From positions 96,001 through 160,000 of IMG/VR virus record IMGVR_UViG_3300031994_000010: a stretch of DNA of 64,000 bases; one strand, given 5' to 3'. The notes under the pieces were generated by a model, which was not told where the DNA came from, did not search any database, and worked only from the letters and a program-made list of their open reading frames with translations. Of this stretch, positions 7,092-63,147 are shown in pieces. Each line of letters opens with the position of its first letter. Position 1 is the first letter of the stretch. This stretch comes from a virus. Lineage: Duplodnaviria > Caudoviricetes. Made by a program: the position numbers and the translations under genes.

Positions 7092-7274
7092 TCATCCTAA
7101 AGCATCGTCTAAATCACCAATTTCACCACCTAATCCTAAATTATCTGGTTCCCAATTATTTGGAATAAACCAACAATTCTTATCAGGATCAAAGTAACAC
7201 TCTTTTGGATAATCTGGATTATCCATATAATCCTGAATTTCAGGCCATTCTACTTTTCTATACAAATCTGTCAT
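7092..7274 (-). CDS. small hypothetical protein
   Basis: 60 aa ORF in operon. Confidence 0.55.
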   Translation of the reverse strand: MTDLYRKVEWPEIQDYMDNPDYPKECYFDPDKNCWFIPNNWEPDNLGLGGEIGDLDDALG

Positions 7275-7566
7275 AATGAAAATTCATTATTACTGGTTTA
7301 TCTTTACATAATTCTTCTACTACTGCTTTATAAAGGTCTAAAAACTTATCCTTATGATAAGGGACATCAATTTTTATTGTATTGTCGTCCCTCTTATCAA
7401 ATTCACTTAGACAAAGGGTTTGCTCTCTTTCCTGTCTCCAACAGTCAAAGAACTCATATAAATCAGTGTGAATATTATCGAGAATTTCTGGATCAGTTCC
7501 AGATATAACGCAAAAAACCTCACTACTAGAATTAGTAATGAGGTCACTTATACTTTTAATTTTCAT
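7258..7566 (-). CDS. SDxITNSSSEVF-leader family protein (copy 4)
   Basis: starts MKIKSISDLITNSSSEVF. Confidence 0.8.
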   Translation of the reverse strand: MKIKSISDLITNSSSEVFCVISGTDPEILDNIHTDLYEFFDCWRQEREQTLCLSEFDKRDDNTIKIDVPYHKDKFLDLYKAVVEELCKDKPVIMNFHYDRFV

Positions 7567-8410: not shown

Positions 8411-9026
8411 AATTCATAAAAGTTTTTAACCCAGATGCTTTTATTTGATCAATTACATATTTAATAAATTCTGGTTCTCTTTCAAATATGGATTCCTTAT
8501 TTAATATATCATAGGCAAAATCTGGATAAGGAATTTTATCTTCTTCGCGAGTGTCTCCTCCTAAAATAGTGCAATTCTTATATATGTAATCTCTTGTAGC
8601 ATCCTGTGCTTGGTCTGAATCCAAATATAGTAGATTTTCTATATCAGAAATATTGTATTCTTCTAACCAATCTTTTACAGTATATGAAAATTCCTTTTTA
8701 TCAAGGTCTGGATATTTTTCATAATATTCGGATACATCTTCCCAAGTTATGTCATTTTCTGGATCGTTTATCATTTCCTCCCAGTCTCCTAACATACCTT
8801 TACGTATAAACCATAAATCAGCAGCTTGAGAAATATAAAAGACAGTCCAATCACCAATATCAAAAATTCCTCCCATTCCAGAACCTCTGTCTATTTTTCC
8901 TTCATAACCATCTTTATGAATTTCCAACAAGATGTCTTTTAACTCTTTAGCTTTGTACTGAGATGTAAGAAGAAAAACTTCAGAACTACTATTAGTAATT
9001 ACATCAGATACACTTAATATTTTCAT
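8388..9026 (-). CDS. SDxITNSSSEVF-leader family protein (copy 1)
   Basis: starts MKILSVSDVITNSSSEVF. Confidence 0.8.
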   Translation of the reverse strand: MKILSVSDVITNSSSEVFLLTSQYKAKELKDILLEIHKDGYEGKIDRGSGMGGIFDIGDWTVFYISQAADLWFIRKGMLGDWEEMINDPENDITWEDVSEYYEKYPDLDKKEFSYTVKDWLEEYNISDIENLLYLDSDQAQDATRDYIYKNCTILGGDTREEDKIPYPDFAYDILNKESIFEREPEFIKYVIDQIKASGLKTFMNYENIKCI

Positions 9027-9241
9027 ATTTCATCTATTTCCAATAAGTCAGAAACATAAATTGCATAATTATTACACTCTTCAATAACTTCATCCCAATC
9101 AAGTCCAATCAAATCTAAATTTTCATTTAATTGTTCAAGTTTAGAACTAGCTTTATCTACTGCATTTTGATAACCAGTTGCAGTAATCTTTTTAATCTGG
9201 TTCACTTCATTTACTGTATAAGCAAATATATAAGTATTCAT
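9023..9241 (-). CDS. hypothetical protein
   Basis: 72 aa ORF with ATGA overlaps on both sides. Confidence 0.65.
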   Translation of the reverse strand: MNTYIFAYTVNEVNQIKKITATGYQNAVDKASSKLEQLNENLDLIGLDWDEVIEECNNYAIYVSDLLEIDEI

Positions 9242-9786
9242 AATATATGATTTTGTTTAGTGTACGCATCAAGTAATTGATAAAAGAAATAATCTGGAAT
9301 AATAAATACTGTATTATCTGTAGTTAATGTATTTTTCTTCCAACATAAACAGAATGGTTTAGACTTATCTGAACATTGCTCTCTAATATTGAAATAACTA
9401 GGAGTGTTTGCATAATTCTTTGCTTGAATATTCACTGGTAACTTACCTTCTACATCACAAATATCAACTTTATCTGCGTCTAGAGAACGGCTTTGTCCCG
9501 CAGAACGTTCACACCCTACATATCCAATAGCTCTAAGTTGGTCTCTTATTTGATACTCTAAATCTTTACCTTTGGTTTTAGATTTTTTAGCACGATATGA
9601 CCTCTTAGTATGTTCATCTAACCATTCACAGCTTATCCCATCTTTAGGAGTAGTATTTTTATTAGCTCTTATCTTAATTGCTTGTACACTTAATCCACTA
9701 TTTTCACTAGCTTCTTCTATAGAAGCATATTCTTCTGTACGTCCATCTTTATAAGTAAGACGTACAGATGTATTTAGCTACTTCAT
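9238..9786 (-). CDS. Hjc-like Holliday junction resolvase with N-terminal NUMOD1-like HTH; in-frame TAG (Gln) at codon 3
   Basis: ATG AAG TAG CTA... overlaps primase TGA (ATGA); 182 aa frame includes YASIEEASENSG and SKTKGKDLE...RSLDADKVDI...NIQAK; ORF track shows only the last 65 aa. Confidence 0.8.
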
Positions 9787-10778
9787 TTTACACGTTTTTT
9801 AATATTCTCTTTTATAAATTCAATAGTTTTATCTTTTCCAAACATCTTATAGAAATCTGATATATCCTTTGCTCCATATTTACGAGGTATCCAAAAATAA
9901 TTAAGTTCTGGATGCTCTTTTTTAATCTTATTCATATTAGATATTCCAGGTAAATCATTATCATAAAATACAACGATATGATTAAATCTAGTTTTTAAAT
10001 CTGACAACATTTTATCCGAAATAAATAAATTTTCAGAATTAGGGGCTATTGCAGCTATTCCCATACTATAAAGTACCATACAATCTTTCATAGATTTAGT
10101 AATAACTAGTAATTTACTTTTTTTAGGAAGTTGTGCATACCCTTGAACAAGTTTAGATGGAGTATTAGATAAAAATCTATAAGTGGTTCGTTTTGGAAAA
10201 TAAATTCTCCAATATTCTAATCCGTCCTTTTTTCCTTCATAATAACCAAACATCATACTATCTTTAGAAGAAGTAATAAATAAGTTACCATTTAAGAAAA
10301 TGTTTTTACAACTAAATACTTTGTATTTGTTTAGAATTTCTGGAGTTATTCCAAAACTCTTCCACCAATCTAATTCTTTCTTAGAATATTCTTTTATCTC
10401 TACTCGTATATCGGATGTACCATTATCTACAAACTTTTCAACAGTTGGAATCTTTTTAACTTTAGCTGATTTACCTGAAATAAATCCAAAATCTATAGCT
10501 ATTTGATTTAAAGCTTGATAATAGCTAAGACCGTATTTATACATTACTACAGCTACAAAGTTTCCATAAAAAGAACCATTAAAATCTTTAAAGATAAGTT
10601 CTCCAGCTTTATTTCTATAAAAGGAACAAGTAGGAGATTTGTCTTTTCTAAGAGGAGATTTAAACAATCCTTTCTTAACTGGAATGTCTAGATAATAAGT
10701 CATATAGACTTCTTCAGAATGTTTAGATAAAAGATATTCCTTAGTAATTCTGGGTTCAAAATCAAATTTAAGTTCCAT
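9783..10778 (-). CDS. DNA primase (phage DnaG/TOPRIM type)
   Basis: SPLRKDKSPTC N-terminal region; TOPRIM-like ITKSMKD and YDND motifs. Confidence 0.85.
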   Translation of the reverse strand: MELKFDFEPRITKEYLLSKHSEEVYMTYYLDIPVKKGLFKSPLRKDKSPTCSFYRNKAGELIFKDFNGSFYGNFVAVVMYKYGLSYYQALNQIAIDFGFISGKSAKVKKIPTVEKFVDNGTSDIRVEIKEYSKKELDWWKSFGITPEILNKYKVFSCKNIFLNGNLFITSSKDSMMFGYYEGKKDGLEYWRIYFPKRTTYRFLSNTPSKLVQGYAQLPKKSKLLVITKSMKDCMVLYSMGIAAIAPNSENLFISDKMLSDLKTRFNHIVVFYDNDLPGISNMNKIKKEHPELNYFWIPRKYGAKDISDFYKMFGKDKTIEFIKENIKKRVK

Positions 10779-14601: not shown

Positions 14602-15882
14602 TTACCAACGAAAATACAAGTTAGTCAAAGACTTACTTGTTGGAGTTATCTCCTCTCCAGCTAATATTTCATCTAATTCTTTTTCATCAATTTTTGTTAT
14701 GTTTGCTCCATAAGCATTCTTTAACCAAGATTCTTCAACGGTTCCTCTAATAACAAGTATAAAGTTCTCAGCAACTTTACCTTTTTCCATTCTAATAACA
14801 CGTCCTCTTTTTTGAATAGCTTTAGTCTTACTACTGTCTATACCTAAATGAATAGCAACACTTAAACCTTTCAAGTCTGCACCTTCATTTAATTTTTGGC
14901 AAGAGTTAATTAGAGCTGGAGCGGGCATTTCACTAAATTCTTCTAATGTAGCTCGTCCTTTTTTCTTAGACATTTTACCTGTGTAAACATATCCTATACC
15001 AATAGACTCTGCCATCTTGACATTATTAGAAAAAGTGATTATTTTTTTATCAGAACGTGCTTCAATTATTTTTCGAGCTATCTCGACCTTTTTAGGATGG
15101 TTATTAATGAACTTTTTACGAGCTTGCATTACTCTCATAAAGCCTGCTGAGTGTATTATAATTGACTTTAAAACTTGAGATTTTTCTTCTTTTGTTCCCT
15201 TTGGACACATTCTATCCCGAAGTCTAAGTCTCCCGTTTAAACCATTAGGTCCCACGCAGGACATGACTAATCCAAAATCGTGGTTAAAGAACTCAAAGTG
15301 CTCATAAAACTCTTTATTTAATTGATTGTAGTAGTCTATGTCGTCTACATCAATTAGAACTGCGTACTCTTTATACTTGCTTATCCACCCATTAAAAAGA
15401 GCTTCTTCAGTGGAGATTTTATCAATAACTGGACAGTATTTAGCTATTAACTCTTCTTTTCCATCCAATCTTTCAAATGTTGCAGTTAATCCTAAGATAT
15501 ATTTGTAATTAACTACATTAAATATCTTAGAGAATAATTCTGACCCATAACGATGGAGTTCATCAAGTACTAAGATAGTTGTTTTCCAATTTACCTTAAC
15601 TGCACTATTAATAATTTGAACTTCTCCATTAAAGGAAAGGCCTCTTTCATCGAGTTGAGCCAACCATTGGTCTTGTAATGCTTGTGTAGGAACTATAACA
15701 AGATATTTTACATTAGGGTTGTGCTTAATTGCCTTAGAAAGAATATTAAGCCCAATTCTGGTTTTTCCTAGGCCAGTGGGTGCAACTATACACCCCTTTC
15801 CTCGGTGTTTAAACCAGTTTTTCATGCACATTTCTTGTCTTTCGTCCCTTGTATAAGGAGTAAACAGTTCTAATTGTTTCAC
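14602..15882 (-). CDS. superfamily 2 helicase
   Basis: PTGLGKT, DELH, GLTAT, LNEGADL, QKRGRVIR. Confidence 0.9.
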   Translation of the reverse strand: MKQLELFTPYTRDERQEMCMKNWFKHRGKGCIVAPTGLGKTRIGLNILSKAIKHNPNVKYLVIVPTQALQDQWLAQLDERGLSFNGEVQIINSAVKVNWKTTILVLDELHRYGSELFSKIFNVVNYKYILGLTATFERLDGKEELIAKYCPVIDKISTEEALFNGWISKYKEYAVLIDVDDIDYYNQLNKEFYEHFEFFNHDFGLVMSCVGPNGLNGRLRLRDRMCPKGTKEEKSQVLKSIIIHSAGFMRVMQARKKFINNHPKKVEIARKIIEARSDKKIITFSNNVKMAESIGIGYVYTGKMSKKKGRATLEEFSEMPAPALINSCQKLNEGADLKGLSVAIHLGIDSSKTKAIQKRGRVIRMEKGKVAENFILVIRGTVEESWLKNAYGANITKIDEKELDEILAGEEITPTSKSLTNLYFRW

Positions 15883-15886
15883 CTAA

Positions 15887-16777
15887 TTACTCATTTGGTC
15901 TGTGTGACTTAAGTTCAATTCCACGAACCTTACAAACTTCTTCAATTTGTGAAATTCTGGTTTCCCATTGAACTATATGATTTTCAATTTCTTCAATAAA
16001 TCTAAACAGGATTTTATTTCGGAGAAGAACAAGTTGGTCAGTAGTAAGCTCAGAATACTTCTTGGTACGAAGATTTAACATAGCTCGTAATTCTGCATAT
16101 GTTAATCCAGCTTGATTAGTCTTAAGTCTTACCTTATCACTGAGATTATGACGATGCTTAATAGTCACTAATCTATCAATCAGTTGACCCTTACTATCAT
16201 ATTCCTTTAAATCTTCACGCTCTTGTGGAGTAAACCAAATACCCAACTTAGTAATGAAGTTAAGAGACAAGTGAGTACGGTCAAAGATTCCAAGACTATC
16301 CAAACAAGCATCTCTAACTTGTTCAATAGTGATGTCCCTAAATTCTGCAGGAAATTCAGCATCAGATGTTACATTATCAATAGTTACTTCAGAATATTTC
16401 TCTTTTGGAAGAACGTCTAGATTATTATCTAAGAGTTCTTTCAAATCCATATAATACAAATGCCTAGAATACAGAGGTCTTCCGTTTGAATTCAAATACT
16501 TTCCTTCAACATATCTGATAAATAGTTCAACATTACATTTAGCTTGTTGCTCCTTTACCATTTTAAGTAGTACATATCTTCCAGGATTCTTTCTATCTGT
16601 ATTATACAACATAGAAAGACAATGATCGTAAAACTTATTTAATTGCTCTTCAGTAGCATCCATTAACTTTATAGTTGGTTGCATTACTTCTCCAGCAACT
16701 TCACGTTTTGGGCCTTTCCAAATATAACCATCTATACTATTCAAAGCCTCCTGCAATTTTTCTCCAAGTACTCCCAT
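15887..16777 (-). CDS. hypothetical protein
   Basis: 296 aa ORF. Confidence 0.75.
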   Translation of the reverse strand: MGVLGEKLQEALNSIDGYIWKGPKREVAGEVMQPTIKLMDATEEQLNKFYDHCLSMLYNTDRKNPGRYVLLKMVKEQQAKCNVELFIRYVEGKYLNSNGRPLYSRHLYYMDLKELLDNNLDVLPKEKYSEVTIDNVTSDAEFPAEFRDITIEQVRDACLDSLGIFDRTHLSLNFITKLGIWFTPQEREDLKEYDSKGQLIDRLVTIKHRHNLSDKVRLKTNQAGLTYAELRAMLNLRTKKYSELTTDQLVLLRNKILFRFIEEIENHIVQWETRISQIEEVCKVRGIELKSHRPNE

Positions 16778-17604: not shown

Positions 17605-17773
17605 AATTAGTATTTAATATGAGGATACTATCTTCGATATTTTCAATCTCATGTTTCAAACTATCAGTAGGAGAGATTATTTTAGATTGTGGTTTATTAC
17701 AATAGTAAAAAATCCCTCCTACTATGAGCAAACTAATTGTTGCTAAGAGACTCCAAGTTATCGCTTTCATCAA
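17486..17773 (-). CDS. N-terminal TM protein (possible spanin component)
   Basis: N-terminal TM helix then coiled coil; overlaps next gene in another frame. Confidence 0.4.
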   Translation of the reverse strand: MMKAITWSLLATISLLIVGGIFYYCNKPQSKIISPTDSLKHEIENIEDSILILNTNYEKNCSIIFNQSFAADTLFFSDYLERYNLHHNSRTVKAN

Positions 17774-18158
17774 AAATCAAATCATCATATTTGTTATAAG
17801 CATAATCCCAATTGGCTAGCTCCTGATTTAGATAGTCTATTACTAACTCAGAAATCTTTCTGCCAATCTTGTAAACTTTCCTATAAGCTTTGGCTTCTGC
17901 TATTCTCTTACCAACAATTTCATCGTAAGTGTCTCGTCCTCCGCAAACAGTTTTAGCTTCTACTTCAAAGGTATGATAACCATATCCTACTTTATGCTTA
18001 AACGCAGGCTGTGTGAAATACTCACCTAATTTATGTACCAACCGAGGACCCATAAAGTTATATACATCTGACTCTGGAACTTTAACTCCACAATAAAGTT
18101 TACAAATAGTGACATTGCCACTCTTAAAGATTTTCTTGTCTACAATTTCGATTTTCAT
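17733..18158 (-). CDS. hypothetical phage protein
   Basis: C-x4-D-x-Y-D-E-x2-GKRIAEAKA motif; ends in TAG. Confidence 0.7.
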   Translation of the reverse strand: MKIEIVDKKIFKSGNVTICKLYCGVKVPESDVYNFMGPRLVHKLGEYFTQPAFKHKVGYGYHTFEVEAKTVCGGRDTYDEIVGKRIAEAKAYRKVYKIGRKISELVIDYLNQELANWDYAYNKYDDLIFDESDNLESLSNN

Positions 18159-21487: not shown

Positions 21488-21723
21488 ATAATTACATTCC
21501 ACTATCCTGTTACAAGGAGCGTCTTTACCTCTCACTCTTTAATTATCGACTTGCCTACAGTAACTTCTCCAACTTTTTAAAGGTTGGCGTTTCCTTCCTT
21601 ATATTCGTTTAATAATCTATTTTTTAATTGCCATTTATCTCTTAAATCAGAATCCCAATCAAACCATTCTGTCCATTGGATTCCATCTTTTGTCCAAAAT
21701 TGATAACGTTTCTGTACCATAAG

Positions 21724-22325
21724 TACCCCAAGCAGGACTCGAACCTGCGACCCATTGCTTAGCTTACCACACTATGTTACCATAGCCAAACAATTAAAGG
21801 AACTTTCGTGGAATTTGTATATTTATACTATATGTTCCTCTCACTTCATACATATTACTATGCACCTTCTTCGAGTTGTTTGTTGTAGTCTGGAATACAT
21901 TATTACCCTATCGAAATTCTTGCAAGTAATAACTTTTCCGTTAAAACGAGCTTTATCTGCCCTAGGAATCATTATAATTTCAACTTAGGTATCTCCTCTA
22001 TATTCTCTACACATTTATGATACTTACATATTGATTTTTACACGATAACTCCGAGTTAATTCTCAATTAAGTATGCACATAGGTTTGCAAGCTATCCACA
22101 TACGTTATAGTCAATAAAATATCAATAGTTTTCTCAATTTAGCACGGTATTATCCTTACACATTATTGGTTAGTGTTCTGTCCCTACGGTGCTGCTATAA
22201 CAGATTTCGTGTTGCAGGGTTGAGGAAAGGACTTCCACCGTTTTAGGGAGATTCTAACAAGGACTTTCGTGCCTTGTCACTCCTTTTTTTAAGGCAATTG
22301 CTCTAATCCACTGAGCTATTGGGGC
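21724..22325 (-). tRNA. tRNA-Arg(UCU) split by group I intron
   Basis: 5' exon GCCCCAATAGCTCAGTGGATTAGAGCAATTGCCTT (22325-22291) + 3' exon CTAAGCAATGGGTCGCAGGTTCGAGTCCTGCTTGGGGTA (21762-21724); joined loop CTTCTAA. Confidence 0.85.
21763..22290 (-). ncRNA. group I intron in tRNA-Arg(UCU), 528 nt, inserted after U34
   Basis: exon ends in U, intron ends in G; P1 CUU/GAG; core-like AATACCGTGCTAA and TGTGTAGAGAATATA; terminal TATG-GTAA-CATA hairpin. Confidence 0.8.
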
Positions 22326-34949: not shown

Positions 34950-35795
34950 CTAGGCCATATATTTCTTTAAAAGAGTAAGACCTTTACAATGTCTCAGTTT
35001 ATCAAGACTTTTTTCTTTAAGTTGTCTTGTTCTTTCTCTAGTCAATCCAAGCTCTATAGCTATTTCATCTAAAGACTGTGGAATACAATTAATACCAAAG
35101 AATTTTTTCAGTATTACAATTTCTCGTTCATCAAGTACCTTACTAAGAACAGCATTAAGCTCTATAGTTAATGAAGAAGAATCTTTAGTTTCTTCTGCTT
35201 GCAGAATATTTGAAAATGGCATATTATCATTGTCTAACAACAAGTTATCCAATGAAAGATGTTTCTTATCTGCAATAAGAATTGGTTTAATTTTACTTTC
35301 TTTAATATTAAATTTATTTGCAATTTCATAGGAAGTAGGTGGTCTTCCATTTTCCTGTTCAAAACTCTCTTTATAAGTATTTATTTTATGTAAGAGAGTT
35401 GCCTGATTTAAAGGAATATGAACCATTCTACTTTGTTCTGAAAGTGCTAGCAGAATGCTTTGACGTATCCACCAAATAGCATAAGAAATAAATTTAAATC
35501 CCCTAGTCTCATCAAACCGTTCAGCAGCAGTTATTAATCCAAAATTACCTTCATTTATTAAATCAATTAAAGATAATCCTTGATACTGATATTGCTTTGC
35601 TACTGAAACAACAAAACGAAGATTTGCTTTTATGAGTTCGTCTTTAGCTTGTTTGTCTCCTTTATGGATTCTTCGTGCTAATTCTTCTTCTTCTAAAGGA
35701 GAAATAGTTTTAATTTTTGAAATATCTGAAAGATATTTTGCTAGTGCTCTATCTGTACGATTTGTCAAATTGACATTAATCTTTAGTTGTCTCAT
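34950..35795 (-). CDS. RNA polymerase sigma-70 factor (Bacteroidetes RpoD-like); stop is TAG
   Basis: ANLRFVVSVAKQY, DLINEGN, RGFKFISYAIWWIRQSI, LTRERTRQ. Confidence 0.92.
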   Translation of the reverse strand: MRQLKINVNLTNRTDRALAKYLSDISKIKTISPLEEEELARRIHKGDKQAKDELIKANLRFVVSVAKQYQYQGLSLIDLINEGNFGLITAAERFDETRGFKFISYAIWWIRQSILLALSEQSRMVHIPLNQATLLHKINTYKESFEQENGRPPTSYEIANKFNIKESKIKPILIADKKHLSLDNLLLDNDNMPFSNILQAEETKDSSSLTIELNAVLSKVLDEREIVILKKFFGINCIPQSLDEIAIELGLTRERTRQLKEKSLDKLRHCKGLTLLKKYMA

Positions 35796-38729: not shown

Positions 38730-40406
38730 TTAGTCAGAATTTGACTGACCATTTATTTTGATATTTCCTCCTTTTTTAAGGAAGCGTTCATTATATAGTT
38801 GAATGTCGATAGGATCATAATAGTTTAGAATATCTGATATGTCAAGATTTCCATGGCTTTTTCCTTTATTAATCATACTGTTGAACGCGGAATTTACTTT
38901 TTGTTCGAAAATCTCTGGACTAGTTTTTTCTAGTTCTGGATATCTTCGTCTTAGAACATCTTTAACTGTTTCTCTTGCGGAAACAACTCGTGCTCTAACT
39001 TCTTCAGGCATTCGATAATATGATGATGGATTATTTTTAAATTTTGGTAACAGCCCATTATTATGTTCTATCATTTTTGCTAAAGTTGGGTTTAATTCAT
39101 TCCATTCTGAAATAATACTAGGGTCTGCCCCTAATGTATCCTAATAGAAATTATATATGTTACCAGATGCTGCATGTCCATTAACTTCATGAATTGCTGT
39201 ATCTCTTAATCCTGAGTATGTTCGATTCTAATTATGTCCTCGAATTAAACTACTAGTAAGATTATTATCCACACTTAAAGAAACATCGGATTTGGGAGCG
39301 TGATTGGGATCATCTAAATACTACCAATAGTAGAAATCATTTTCAGTATTAAACTGACCAAGTGAATCGTCAGTTATGTGTCCCTCTCCTTCCATCAACT
39401 GTGTTCCTTCCAAATTATTCCGATATATATCTTTTGCTTCTTGTATCTCTCTTTCAGAGAATCCAGCATTTCGCATTCTTTGCTCCCAAACTGGACTACC
39501 ATACATATCATATCCAGCTTGTTTAGCATCACTAAACGCAAGAGCTTTATCCATATCATCGAGGGATAATGTCCTTGGTTCTATAGTTGTTGCTTTATCA
39601 GTATAAGAAGACTTCTGCTATGCTGAATAAGGTCTACGTAAAACTCCTTGTCCATTAACCGTAACTCCTCCAGTTTCTTGTACTGCATTTTGTACACCAG
39701 ACTATGGTTTTTCTACTAAGTCAGTAGCTACCTGTCTTGGTTTAAATCTTGAAGTCCATTTAGAAGCAGCTGTTCGGGCATTCTTAAATGCCTTAGCCGC
39801 AGCTGGAGTTACTCCTAAGTCAAACATAAGATCTAAATCCTAATCTTCAAAGAATCCAGGATTTTCTGGATCCCAAGGAGCTTTGCCACTTTTAATTGTT
39901 CCTATTAAACGGCTAGGCATCATAGAAGGAAATACATACTAAGCAGTAAAGTTCGATACAGGAGTATCAATATTTTGTAAATAATTATAAGTTGGATTCG
40001 TTACTCCAGTATAAACCATAGAAGGATTCATACTAGCAGAGCTGACCATACTTCTTTCTAGGTTTTGCATACCTGGAAGTAATACTCTGTCTCCAAACCA
40101 CTCTAATCCTGCTCTTACTGGTTTTATTGCTGCTCTTGGATCAAATGCAGAACTATAAGTATATCTAGGATTCCAATGAAATTCCTTACCTGCATCAAAG
40201 AAATTACGAGGAGTATTCTACTAATCAATTTGACTCTTTATTTTTCCAGCTAACTCAGGAGTAACTTCAATTGGATTACCATCCGGTCCTGATATTTTTA
40301 GATTATCTTTTAAAGTCCCACTTTCAGATATTGCTGTATCAAAAATCCTATAAGGCTATCCATCTATTTCAAATTCATACAATACTTTTTTATTATCTGT
40401 AGGCAT
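38730..40406 (-). CDS. code-15 protein, 558 aa, zincin-like HEVNGH motif
   Basis: ATG 40406 (MPTDNKK...); fragments 39321-39554 and 38730-39074 in same frame; AIHEVNGH...PEEVRAR. Confidence 0.75.
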
Positions 40407-41128: not shown

Positions 41129-42784
41129 TTATTCATTAATTGTGGATTCGGCACGATTTTTGTTATATTCAAAATTGTATAAAGGATATGTTAGATTCCT
41201 CTATGCAAAGTTAAAGTTGAATGGCTAATCAAGTGAAACTTCAAATGGGGTAGAATAGCGAGCTCCTGGTATTTGTTCATTGGCAAATAAATTCATCGTA
41301 TTACCTTTAAGGAAATAATCTCCAACACTTCCCGATTTTGCTACAGAAGTTTTTACTGCAAAGGGATGTTCAAGAGTGAATGGCTTTGCTCCTACCATTC
41401 TTCCTACTTCTCTATTAATCCATGGAGTATTGCCAATATTTTTCATGGTTTTCTATAGTTTATCTCCAGTACTCCAAATGAAATTTCCTACTTTAGTACC
41501 AGCCTATTCACCTAATAAAGAAGTTGTCTTATCCATAGCTGTACCTCCAAATGAAAACAATTTATCATTGATATATTTTCCTGCTTGATTAAAAAGCGAT
41601 CTTAGTGGTTGAAGGTCCCAAACATCACGCATCATGTAACGATTAAACGAAGTTCCATCTGGTGCCTAGAATTGTCCATCGTATCTTATTCCAACACTTC
41701 CTCCATTGTTTCCTATAAAATCACTATGTACGTCGTATCCATTTCTAGTAGCCTATCTTATAGAAACTTCTGGATGTCTTTCTTTAAATAATCCAAACAG
41801 ATTATAAGGCGACTACTCTGCGTCATACTGATATGTTCCATTCTCATTTTTCTTATAAAAGGGTGTACTTTCCTCTGGGGCACCTGCATATTTTGAAACA
41901 GCTTGTGCTCTTCCGACTTCAGAAGGAGCATATTCTTCATCACCACCATAAGTCCTAAGTTTACCTTTTTCTACTAAGGTTACTGACTAATCCCCAGTTT
42001 CTGGGTTTATCTTAACTTTTGGATATTCTTTAACTCCTCCTTTAGTAAGTGTTGTTATAAAAGATGGAACTCGCTACGCTTGACTATATCCATAACTTGT
42101 TCCAAATTCATTTGCAAATGTTCTAGCTACAGTTGGTTGAATTGCTTTATTAAAAAGACTGAATCCTATTGGTGCTGCGAAAGATCCAATTATCTATCCT
42201 GCTTCTTTATTTCCAAATTCTTCACCAATTTTTCCTCCGGCATAACCTCCTAACATAGAAGTTCCAAGTCCAAAGAGTGCAGTATGTGGTGCAGCAGCAA
42301 AATTCCCTGCCATTGCCATAGCAAGAGGCGTATCTCTTCCTACGAAACGGGCGAAGGATGGGGTTGCTCTCCATTGGTCGGATACATTTGTCATCTACCC
42401 AAGACCACTATGTAGTCCCCATCCTGCCATAGCATTATTGAGCCATACTTGATTACCATCCCTGATTTCTCCGTGAGTGGCTGCATAAGCATCAGACTAC
42501 TGTTGTGTAGGTTCGGTATGTGTTATTCCATATTGTTTATCTTGTAGTCCTTTTTGGTATCTCCGATAGCTTTTATTTGCGTTTTCTGTTGCTATTCTGC
42601 GATTTGCTCGTCTTGTTTGTTGTTTTACCTTTTGATCTTCTTCTAGCTATTTTCTATTAACTGTTACGTTTGAATTTGTGTTTGTCCCAGGGACGGCTGT
42701 TGCTTCTTTCTCCCATTTGGCTAATTGTGCTGGGGAAATATTAATTTTCAGCCGTCCTGATGGGTTTTGAAATTTTTGAATCAT
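41129..42784 (-). CDS. code-15 protein, 551 aa (probable virion/late protein)
   Basis: ATG 42784 (MIQKFQNPSG); only TAG interruptions to TAA 41129; DVWDLQP...KPF motif. Confidence 0.8.
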
Positions 42785-57755: not shown

Positions 57756-58029
57756 TGGCCTATGGTGTAACGGTAGTCACAGGGGACTCTTAAAAAAAGG
57801 AGCATTATAAAGAAATTTATAATTGAACAGTTCGCTAATTCGGTGAAACTCTTATAAAGACAACGCCGAGCAAGGTTTTTAAAACTATGTGTAGAGACTT
57901 TATACGAACTACCTAAGTCGTTAAGATATGGTAAAGACAAAGTCCGGACTACAACAATCATAGATTGGTTATGGTAACATAATGTAGTGAAGAAATCCCT
58001 TAGTCTGGGTTCGAATCCTAGTGGGCCAA
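57756..58029 (+). tRNA. amber suppressor tRNA (CUA anticodon, Gln-type body) split by group I intron
   Basis: 5' exon TGGCCTATGGTGTAACGGTAGTCACAGGGGACTCT (57756-57790) + 3' exon AAATCCCTTAGTCTGGGTTCGAATCCTAGTGGGCCAA (57993-58029); joined GGGGA-CTCTAAA-TCCCT; U1-A72. Confidence 0.8.
57791..57992 (+). ncRNA. compact group I intron (202 nt) in suppressor tRNA anticodon
   Basis: P1 CUCU/GGAG with U.G; AATTCGGTGAAAC, AACGCCGAGCAA, GTGTAGAGACT, AAAGTCC; TATG-GTAA-CATA hairpin; terminal G. Confidence 0.82.
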
Positions 58030-58033
58030 CAAA

Positions 58034-61560: not shown

Positions 61561-61728
61561 TTAATTAGTTTGTATTGCTTGTATTCTATTTTTATAATTA
61601 CTCAAAACAGATGCCGCTTTATAAGCACTAACTGACCCTGCTGGTACATAGATAGTAACAGCATTTTTCCAAGAGTTATCATCTGGAGTCTATAAAAATG
61701 GTGATATACTATTAAATTTATTATTCAT
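61561..61728 (-). CDS. 55 aa LRR C-cap remnant (code 15)
   Basis: MNNKFNSISPFL[TAG]TPDD...TIYVPAGSVSAYKAAS...RIQAI. Confidence 0.55.
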
Positions 61729-62917
61729 TCTTTATTTTATTTATTACTATTCCAGTAACAACTGGAACTTTTATCTGTGATAATTTAAAATTCTAAACCC
61801 ACTATGGAATCTATGACTTAGGAAGTTCAGCTAATCCTGTAGCGTAATCTTCCATATATCCGTTTGTCTTCACTGTATTAAAAAGATTAACCACCTAGTC
61901 GTCAGTTAAACTATTTATATAAGTATTTAATTCTTCATAAGTGGGCTAATGTCCTAACTAATCTGCTAAATATTTTCTAATCTCTGCGTTAGTAGCTCCC
62001 ATTTCTGATACTAACTTTGAATCCGCATGAGCTACTCTTCTAGGTAATAAATATGTGTCTTTAAGTAATTTACTTTGTGCTCTACTATAAGGAACTAACT
62101 ATTGATAACCGTGAGTTCCTTCATGTAAAGCAGTACTAGCAGCATCTGGTGACCAAATATCATTAAGATAGTTTCCAGAACTAGTATGGACTCCCTAAAT
62201 ATCTTCAGCTATAGGTCTATAATTTAAAGCTTCCATTTCTGCTTTAGGCATAGCCTACATATTGCTATAAGTAGTAACCGAAGGAGACTTAACTGCTTCC
62301 TATGCTTTTAAAGCTCTATTATAAGAACGTCTCGCAGTTATTCTCTATCTCCAAGGTAACTAAATTACTGCTGTAGGTTGACTTGTTCTTCCAGTAGTTA
62401 TCATCTAAGTTACTGGTTTCTAAGCAGATTGTGGTAGCCAAGACAGTTCTCTTAATACATTCTACTATATTAAATAGTTATCTGGAATCTATAAAGTTTC
62501 TGGATTATATATAAGGTTATCAGTTTGAAACTAAGCTAAAGCATCATCAGATACTTTTGTATCTACAGTATAAGCTTTACCGTCAATTCCTTTGGTAGTT
62601 CTTACTTTGTATCTTGTTTTAGCTAAAGGACGTACTACCTTAGCTAAAGGAGATAAAGCAGCTCCTTCTACTATAAATGTTCCAACTGGATCTGCTCCAG
62701 AAAGTCCTATTATTCTAGGACTAAAACTATACTAATCTTTCTTTCCCTACAACTTTTCTCTAACGGTTGTTTTCTTTCTTAATGTTGGTTTCATTTCAGA
62801 ATGAGGAAGAGTTCGGGCTTGCTATTGTTTTCTTTTCTAATATTGCTAAGCCTAAACTCCTTCTCTTCTATATTTACTACCTTGAATAGTATCTCCGTTC
62901 TATAAACGAAGTATCAT
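61721..62917 (-). CDS. code-15 zincin-like (HEGTH) protein, 398 aa
   Basis: ATG 62917 overlaps upstream TGA; about 25 TAG and no TAA/TGA until 61721; ALHEGTH...EMGATNAEIR. Confidence 0.8.
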
Positions 62918-63147
62918 AATAACAAGGCAAGAACTGCTAAGGCACAACCAATCAATCCGAAGACTGCTACTTTATCATTTACTGGATTACCAAGCATTTG
63001 ATTATTAACAATCTCTTTGGCTATAACAAAAATGGCACCAAAGATTACAGCAAACCAAATGTCAGCTAATCCAAAGTAACCAAGTAATGTCATCCCTACT
63101 CCAAACAAAAATCCTACAAAGGAATTATTCATTAAATTATTCCACAT
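62914..63147 (-). CDS. small multi-TM protein (holin-like topology)
   Basis: three hydrophobic segments in 77 aa. Confidence 0.5.
   Translation of the reverse strand: MWNNLMNNSFVGFLFGVGMTLLGYFGLADIWFAVIFGAIFVIAKEIVNNQMLGNPVNDKVAVFGLIGCALAVLALLL

Follow-up and report, generated by a model that had tools for sequence, protein, structure and literature searches.

An early amber codon as a probable translational gate on a predicted Hjc-like nuclease gene of a phage with block-wise recoding

Why does a gene in the replication block of a phage carry a stop codon almost directly behind its start codon, and under which circumstances can its product be made? This question is raised by a predicted nuclease gene on the minus strand (9238-9786) of a 64,000-nucleotide stretch of phage DNA, here referred to as the window, which corresponds to bases 96,001-160,000 of a 174,440-bp genome with 32% G+C. 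The initial annotation of the locus had proposed that a single amber codon keeps a junction resolvase off until a suppressor tRNA matures.

The nuclease gene and its product

The start codon of the nuclease gene (ATG, 9784-9786, minus strand) overlaps the stop codon of the gene directly upstream (TGA, 9785-9783) as ATGA. It is followed by AAG (9783-9781) as codon 2 and by the in-frame amber codon TAG (9778-9780, minus strand) as codon 3, which constitutes the proposed gate and is conserved in homologues. Behind the TAG, the frame continues with CTA AAT ACA TCT GTA and comprises 179 sense codons up to a TGA at 9240-9238, amounting to 182 codons if TAG is read as glutamine. The succession of ATG AAG TAG overlapping the upstream TGA and of 179 further sense codons, as put forward by the initial annotation, was confirmed at coordinates 9786-9238 of the minus strand. 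Likewise, the genes flanking the nuclease gene proved to be free of internal TAG codons, as had been claimed, and the remaining glutamine codons of the nuclease gene, for which CAA and CAG had been stated, are CAA in all eight cases.

The upstream gene (9783-10778, minus strand) is an ORF of 331 amino acids without any TAG, which encodes a DnaG-type primase (PHROG 12622, 'DNA primase', E 1.4e-45), and a DnaB-like helicase gene is located farther upstream. On the downstream side, the ATG of a gene for 72 amino acids (9023-9241, minus strand) overlaps the TGA of the nuclease gene, again as ATGA. These stop/start overlaps form a chain that leads from the primase gene via the nuclease gene and the 72-aa gene to a gene for 212 amino acids (window 9023-10778, minus strand). 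If ribosomes terminate early, at the amber codon, the coupled translation of the genes downstream of the nuclease gene might be lowered as well; the downstream members of the chain are weakly conserved in relatives, conservation of the 72-aa gene being poor.

The N-terminal part of the predicted protein (residues 4-59; 9610-9777, minus strand) resembles DNA-binding domains of the I-HmuI and NUMOD-like type according to Pfam, Foldseek and VIA. In particular, PF22083 (I-HmuI NUMOD-like) was matched below threshold at E 0.021, Foldseek paired the domain with 1u3e at E 6e-3, and VIA aligned 58 positions of residues ~1-59 with the DNA-binding domain of I-HmuI (1u3e) at Z 7.0, while I-TevI (1t2t) reached Z 5.2. 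The C-terminal part (residues 69-177; 9256-9582, minus strand) is a Hjc-like nuclease domain of the PD-(D/E)XK type as judged by PHROG 244, a PDB profile search and VIA. PHROG 244, which is annotated as junction resolvase, was matched at E 1.2e-10, and a family profile built from 35 sequences retrieved archaeal Hjc chains from the PDB at E 0.005-0.011, with E77, D108, Q121 and K123 being paired with E12, D42, E55 and K57 of Hjc. The AF2 (AlphaFold) model of the nuclease reached an average pLDDT of 87.9. VIA matched residues 69-177 to Hje at Z 7.0 (1ob8, 95 aligned), to Hjc at Z 6.6 (1gef), to 2wcw at Z 5.9 and to the Hjc-like resolvase of phage 15-6 at Z 5.0 (7bgs); measured against a caution line of Z 8, even the best of these nuclease matches (Z 7.0) is modest.

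The catalytic tetrad E...D...E-x-K is not fully present, since the glutamate of the ExK motif is replaced by Gln121, which is invariant in 35 of 35 sequences; an extra invariant residue, D111, might stand in for it. Hence, the protein shares the PD-(D/E)XK core with Hjc and Hje (1gef, 1hh1, 1ob8, 2eo0) and with the resolvase of Thermus phage 15-6 (7bgs), and its domains are similar in size to those of Hjc and Hje, but it differs from the latter by the invariant Q121 at the position of the ExK glutamate, by the additional D111 and by the fused N-terminal domain of the I-HmuI type. This likeness is known from sequence and model, with marginal sequence similarity (E ~0.005) and Z-scores of at most 7.0. 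Given the modest scores and the invariant glutamine in place of the ExK glutamate, the protein is designated as a predicted, Hjc-like nuclease and is not assigned to the Hjc family, for which Pfam gave no match up to E 0.1. The proposed composition of a helix-turn-helix plus a Hjc-like PD-(D/E)XK nuclease is thereby supported with moderate strength by Pfam, PHROG, profile and fold matches. Another Pfam family, PF24608 (PDDEXK_15), aligned over positions 1-66 of its 164 profile positions with 17.2 bits and E 0.0049 (16.6 bits in the genome search), which does not reach its gathering threshold of 27 bits. Since the homologues P0047 and P0048 carry a precomputed PF24608 hit, this family is probably a distant relative of the nuclease.

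The position of the gene is as characteristic as its product. In 76 of 83 homologous loci the primase gene is located directly upstream, and it is found within 700 nt in all 82 loci that extend far enough in this direction. Conversely, a search starting from the primase revealed the nuclease in all loci with a primase at least 50% identical and with room downstream. A DNA-binding module of the homing endonuclease type (I-HmuI / I-TevI-like) is present, and a free-standing homing endonuclease was considered as well; this was rejected, given that the nuclease is a core gene, syntenic with the primase and neither sporadic nor mobile. No homologue of RuvC or endonuclease VII was found in the genome. 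Yutin et al. (2021, PMC7886860) described a nuclease, termed PDDEXK_b, that crAss-like phages encode in their replication block, and the protein studied here likewise is a PD-(D/E)XK nuclease in a replication block next to DnaG primase and DnaB helicase. The match to PDDEXK_b rests on this description and on the position between primase/helicase and other early genes; unlike PDDEXK_b as described, the gene of this phage features a probable amber gate.

Block-wise use of TAG in the genome

Under the standard code, ORFs of at least 150 amino acids add up to 22,497 amino acids, as compared to 48,995 amino acids with TAG as a sense codon, and the longest ORF grows from 757 to 3,577 amino acids. 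The late blocks on the plus strand contain 605 TAG codons versus 651 CAA and CAG codons in a total of 25,234 codons, i.e. about half of the glutamine-type codons in late genes are TAG, and single late proteins feature 93-98 TAG codons, 98 being the maximum. Late genes that are open only with TAG as a sense codon also occur on the minus strand, for instance at 38730-40406 (558 codons, 10 TAG) and at 61721-62947 (408 codons, 25 TAG).

In contrast, the minus-strand early block encompasses 85 ORFs with 18,051 codons and 18 TAG codons within TAA/TGA-delimited frames, and among these 85 ORFs the nuclease gene is the sole one that needs read-through of TAG. The remaining TAG codons either lie 1-4 codons ahead of a canonical start codon or represent a natural stop, with the exception of an ORF of 476 codons with two TAGs (14602-16032), in which the first TAG is located 10 codons ahead of the start. 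The absence of TAG from the early genes alongside its use in the late genes argues for translation of the early genes while UAG still terminates. A few early genes stop at TAG (window 7258-7566, 17733-18158 and 34950-35795, minus strand) and are followed by an in-frame TAA or TGA 5-35 codons further on; these genes would obtain short C-terminal extensions after the code switch.

The identity of the amino acid at TAG was assessed by genome-wide tblastn, recording the codons of four related complete genomes at the TAG positions of this genome. CAA is the commonest codon at these positions in all four relatives, and the joint share of CAA and CAG ranges from 15 to 28% across relatives; the TGA-recoded relative G003, for example, has CAA or CAG at 58 of 208 positions. 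For other crAss-like phages, proteomics has established that TAG is read as glutamine (PMC9523058). The codon comparison fits an assignment of TAG to glutamine in this genome as well, which is recoded block-wise, with genetic code 15 in the late genes and a switch that presumably takes place late. PHROG scans of the window's TAG-rich late genes yielded almost no annotation, comparison of the late gene at 41129-42784 with five relatives gave no match, and neither did megablast of 4 kb around the nuclease gene against phage records.

The size of the genome, its density of introns and its partial recoding are all in line with the Zeta group, which is characterized by genomes of 145-192 kb, many introns and reassignment of TAG or TGA in late genes (PMC7886860). 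The genome is probably complete, given its direct terminal repeat: bases 1-242 recur at 174199-174440, outside the window. The record's own class is 'linear, no end repeats' despite this direct terminal repeat of ~242 bases.

Conservation of the amber codon among relatives

The 83 homologous loci were gathered from GenBank phage records and IMG/VR. About 73 of them feature an in-frame TAG 2-6 codons past an ATG and 0-3 codons before an (E/D)LNT motif, the ATG being present at this distance in all TAG-bearing homologues, and in these loci the gate is almost always the single TAG of the gene. The nucleotide surroundings of the TAG fall into some 50 distinct contexts, in which the flanking codons vary synonymously (AAA/AAG; TTA/TTG/CTA/CTT/CTG; AAT/AAC; ACA/ACT/ACC/ACG) while TAG stays constant. 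This arrangement bears directly on the trivial explanation by a sequencing error or a decaying pseudogene, since a fresh nonsense mutation would indeed look like a stop at codon 3. The same stop, however, recurs in approximately 73 independent assemblies, and the reading frame behind it is intact with 27 invariant residues and is syntenic in all close relatives, which leaves practically no room for such an explanation. Moreover, homologues were matched at E-values down to 1e-114, which together with the 27 invariant columns implies that the frame did not arise by chance. The early TAG, on whose conservation the initial annotation had made its reading depend, was thus strongly borne out (~73 of 83 loci), and an erroneous or non-conserved codon was not found.

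The contrast between the N-terminal tail and the body of the gene is pronounced. Among 71 unique genes, the tail from the ATG to the LNT motif contains 64 TAG, 2 CAA and no CAG codons, whereas the gene bodies of the same set contain 2 TAG codons compared to 198 CAA and 39 CAG codons (237 in sum). The neighbouring replication genes of the relatives are entirely free of TAG in ~135,000 aligned codons, comprising the primase (26,832 aligned codons at 82 loci), the helicase (21,518 aligned codons) and six further genes. That TAG is held in the tail, while CAA and CAG are used in the body and TAG is lacking from the neighbours, can hardly be accounted for by anything other than selection for the stop codon itself.

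These numbers also weigh on the possibility that the suppressor is partly active throughout infection and that the TAG merely lowers the yield of the nuclease. Coupling to the primase via ATGA would otherwise lead to similar translation rates of both genes, and small quantities of a resolvase usually suffice. If UAG were readable early, though, the lack of TAG from ~135,000 neighbouring codons would be without reason, and the late genes employ TAG for about half of their glutamine-type codons. Since late proteins with 93-98 TAG codons require nearly complete suppression, one TAG would hardly attenuate. Attenuation is therefore considered unlikely, and the single TAG of the nuclease gene may rather be regarded as a switch, conferring an on/off dependence on suppression, than as a dimmer.

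A maximum-likelihood tree of the nuclease was built from 65 unique proteins with the tail left aside. On this midpoint-rooted tree, TAG occurs in 59 of the 65 proteins and on both sides of the root, with 3-4 losses of the gate (a clade of L056 and L020/L021; L024; L018). In L024, CAA occupies the site at which its closest relatives have the TAG. The loci L006 and L010 (genome G004) lack an N-terminal TAG and contain a single TAG at codon 20 instead, whereas L124 (3960-4538) has retained a TAG at codon 4 (M-A-K-TAG) despite a replaced N-terminal domain; the latter is Cys-rich (CPxH...CPxC) instead of I-HmuI-like. As some TAG-recoded relatives without the gate exist, e.g. locus L021 of genome G002, the gate seems to be advantageous and not essential. 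A parallel gate made of TGA was sought in TGA-recoded relatives and is absent from L056 of genome G003. In G006, a TGA at the invariant Trp149 was considered and rejected as a gate, because primase and helicase of this genome contain six and three TGA codons, respectively, indicating genome-wide recoding. G006 is TGA-recoded genome-wide with its replication genes included (L181-L189, e.g. 63919-65296), and its nuclease is shortened and lacks the DNA-binding domain.

Another reading takes the TAG as a permanent stop: ATG...TAG would be a mini-ORF for a leader peptide of 2-6 residues, and the nuclease would arise by restart of translation. About 45% of the distinct TAG-bearing variants do have a TTG, GTG or ATG 0-3 codons past the TAG, and many database proteins beginning with 'MELNTSC...' are code-11 calls from a GTG directly behind it. 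In the window, however, the first in-frame ATG, GTG or TTG past the TAG (table 11) is a GTG at 9435, which is codon 118, the refuting case of a start farther downstream having been checked in this way. Since this codon lies past the invariant residues E77, D103, D108 and D111, none of which the shortened product would contain, no functional protein is to be expected from a downstream start. Likewise, the L001 group has CTG at the corresponding place and many others have TTA, CTA or CTT, while the TTG cases represent one synonymous leucine codon of the conserved LNT motif. Moreover, a leader peptide could as well terminate at TAA or TGA, but TAG is used every time. Restart after the TAG was hence rejected for this window and many relatives, in which there is no nearby start codon, and as a general account of the family it is very unlikely, although it would be conceivable for the ~45% of variants that do have such a codon. 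Immediately after the TAG, the conserved part of the sequence sets in, and the first beta-strand of the model starts there as well. The amber gate explains why annotation with code 11 truncates or misses the nuclease gene.

The proposed gate and its suppressor tRNA

In view of these findings, the TAG at codon 3 is probably a translational gate, which would keep the nuclease off until the suppressor of the phage acts and would reserve it for late use on branched DNA. As long as UAG is a stop codon, ribosomes that initiate at the primase-coupled ATG would release the dipeptide Met-Lys and no nuclease would be formed, while the TAG-free replication genes would be translated in this very state. 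Once the phage tRNA(CUA) is available, UAG would be read as glutamine, yielding the full protein of 182 residues; in this genome, the tRNA would have to lose a group I intron beforehand. Since the early block is presumably read while UAG terminates and the sole route to the nuclease leads through a UAG, the enzyme would be off in that state, and it can probably be made only when the phage's own UAG-reading tRNA works. A TAG right after the start would waste no more than a di- to hexapeptide and would leave no DNA-binding fragment behind. The gating itself is well supported, whereas we infer its timing and the resolution of junctions. Most likely, the gate would serve to prevent a structure-cutting nuclease from acting on phage DNA that is still being replicated and recombined, up to the late recoded phase, in which branched concatemers would be cleaned up for packaging. 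Late suppression, the cutting of junctions or branches and harm from early expression are presumed components of this scheme.

Alternatively, the gate could serve as a safety lock against expression outside of productive infection, e.g. in a carrier state, upon abortive entry or after DNA transfer, and not as a timer for packaging. The dependence on a phage-encoded tRNA would be the same, a gate near the N-terminus would here, too, avoid a DNA-binding fragment, and persistence of crAss-like phages alongside their hosts has been reported (PMC12386605); as a purpose, such a lock is as compatible with the evidence as timing is. On the other hand, the neighbouring replication genes are unlocked, and the lock would then be needed for the nuclease alone. 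A pure safety function is considered rather improbable compared to the gate that opens in the late phase.

The general idea that recoded stop codons regulate phage genes is already published: Borges et al. (bioRxiv 10.1101/2021.08.26.457843) proposed regulation of late and lytic genes by stop-codon recoding in gut phages. They described a TGA-laden homing endonuclease of a group I intron in an early gene of Agate phages and explicitly proposed that in-frame recoded stops restrain a nuclease encoded in the early region (10.1101/2021.08.26.457843). The system described here equals theirs in the standard-code host, the standard-code early block and a recoded stop that would prevent translation as long as no suppressor tRNA of the phage is active. 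It differs by relying on one codon, whose N-terminal position is conserved, in a replication-block gene that is core and not mobile, by the maintenance of the gate across a deep tree and by the sharp contrast in codon usage between tail and body. The text of Borges et al. contains no mention of a resolvase, of an N-terminal placement or of a single-codon gate. A conserved single amber codon on a replication-block nuclease is described neither there nor by Yutin et al., and it is absent from the Zeta-group paper and from a preprint of 2026 that deals with a crAss-like phage in which amber is reassigned. Newly added by the present analysis are the contrast in codon usage between tail and body, the TAG that has moved, the variant with a swapped domain and, in the genome of this window, the suppressor split by an intron. 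While the case for recoded stops as timers rests mostly on the block-wise distribution of codons, here one codon in the unconstrained N-terminal tail of a core gene stays TAG across a deep family.

That a single UAG can tie the synthesis of a gene product strictly to a suppressor tRNA is familiar from the laboratory. Amber (sus/am) conditional-lethal phage mutants grow on suppressor hosts; unlike in these mutants, the amber codon of the nuclease gene is natural, selected and conserved, and its suppressor is supplied by the phage. The resolvase of phage T4 offers a functional comparison: in early transcripts, the start of T4 gene 49 (endonuclease VII) is reportedly hidden by a hairpin, as Barth, Powell, Trupin and Mosig are said to have found in 1988, and the enzyme is reportedly made mainly late. 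Like gene 49, the gene studied here would be a phage resolvase-like gene that is transcribed along with earlier genes and translated mainly late, ahead of packaging. The means are different, with mRNA structure in T4 as opposed to a recoded stop and a tRNA, and so are the enzymes, since endonuclease VII is HNH-like and unrelated to a PD-(D/E)XK nuclease. If the protein is indeed a debranching nuclease, its gate would be a new solution to a problem that T4 solves by an mRNA hairpin.

The suppressor tRNA(CUA) resides in the window on the plus strand and is the genome's only amber suppressor. Its exon 1 (57756-57790) ends with ...CUCU and is separated from exon 2 (57993-58030) by a group I intron of 202 nt within the anticodon (57791-57992). 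Rfam RF00028 recognizes the intron with 42.2 bits and E 1.7e-9, which is below the gathering score of 50. In its P1 element, CUCU of the exon pairs with GGAG, including a U-G pair at the splice site, and the 3' end of the intron is a G. When the exons are joined, ARAGORN in default mode reports a canonical tRNA(CUA) with the anticodon loop CUCUAAA. The intact suppressor of the relative G004 aligns with this genome as two segments separated by about 230 nt, and exon 2 is identical to it in 23 of 23 nt.

With default ARAGORN and with Rfam at gathering thresholds, 14 tRNAs and no suppressor were obtained. In its intron mode, ARAGORN miscalls the split suppressor (57756-58030) as tRNA-Lys(ctt). 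Low-threshold ARAGORN candidates with the anticodons cta or ttag (genome positions 124465, 166137 and 123242) were rejected because of poor folds. Yutin et al. noted that some recoded genomes lack a detectable suppressor (PMC7886860), and the intron-split tRNA illustrates why some recoded phages seem to be devoid of one. The search for a release-factor gene in the genome gave no match.

Intact tRNA(CUA) genes, one to three in each genome, are present in G002, G003, G004, G005 and G007. As relatives with an intact tRNA(CUA) keep the gate, the intron is not integral to it, which agrees with the view of the intron as a mobile passenger. The claim that the suppressor must mature before the nuclease can be made therefore holds for this window insofar as its tRNA(CUA) is split by an intron, and does not extend to the gate of the relatives. 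G002 carries two tRNA(CUA) in tandem (1831-1981, L084), G007 carries three (L190, L198, L199), and in G004 a tRNA(UUA) lies beside the tRNA(CUA) (141349-141421, L100).

A further-reaching and more tentative possibility is that selection has made the amber codon a one-codon licence, under which a branch-cutting nuclease of the early operon could be translated only after the phage has switched the genetic code of the cell, with self-splicing of the intron as a second key in this genome. If this were the case, the gene would report the code switch naturally and in the most minimal form and would provide the cleanest evolutionary evidence so far for regulatory recoding as opposed to neutral drift. 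A simple test system would consist of ten codons of the gene joined to a reporter, in the presence or absence of the tRNA.

The intron of the suppressor appears to have a counterpart in the same window: the gene for tRNA-Arg(UCU) (21723-22325, minus strand) is interrupted by an insert of 528 nt. The ends of this insert, AAAAAAAGGAG ... GGTAACATARTGTRGTRAAG, resemble the ends of the suppressor intron, which suggests that both belong to the same intron family.
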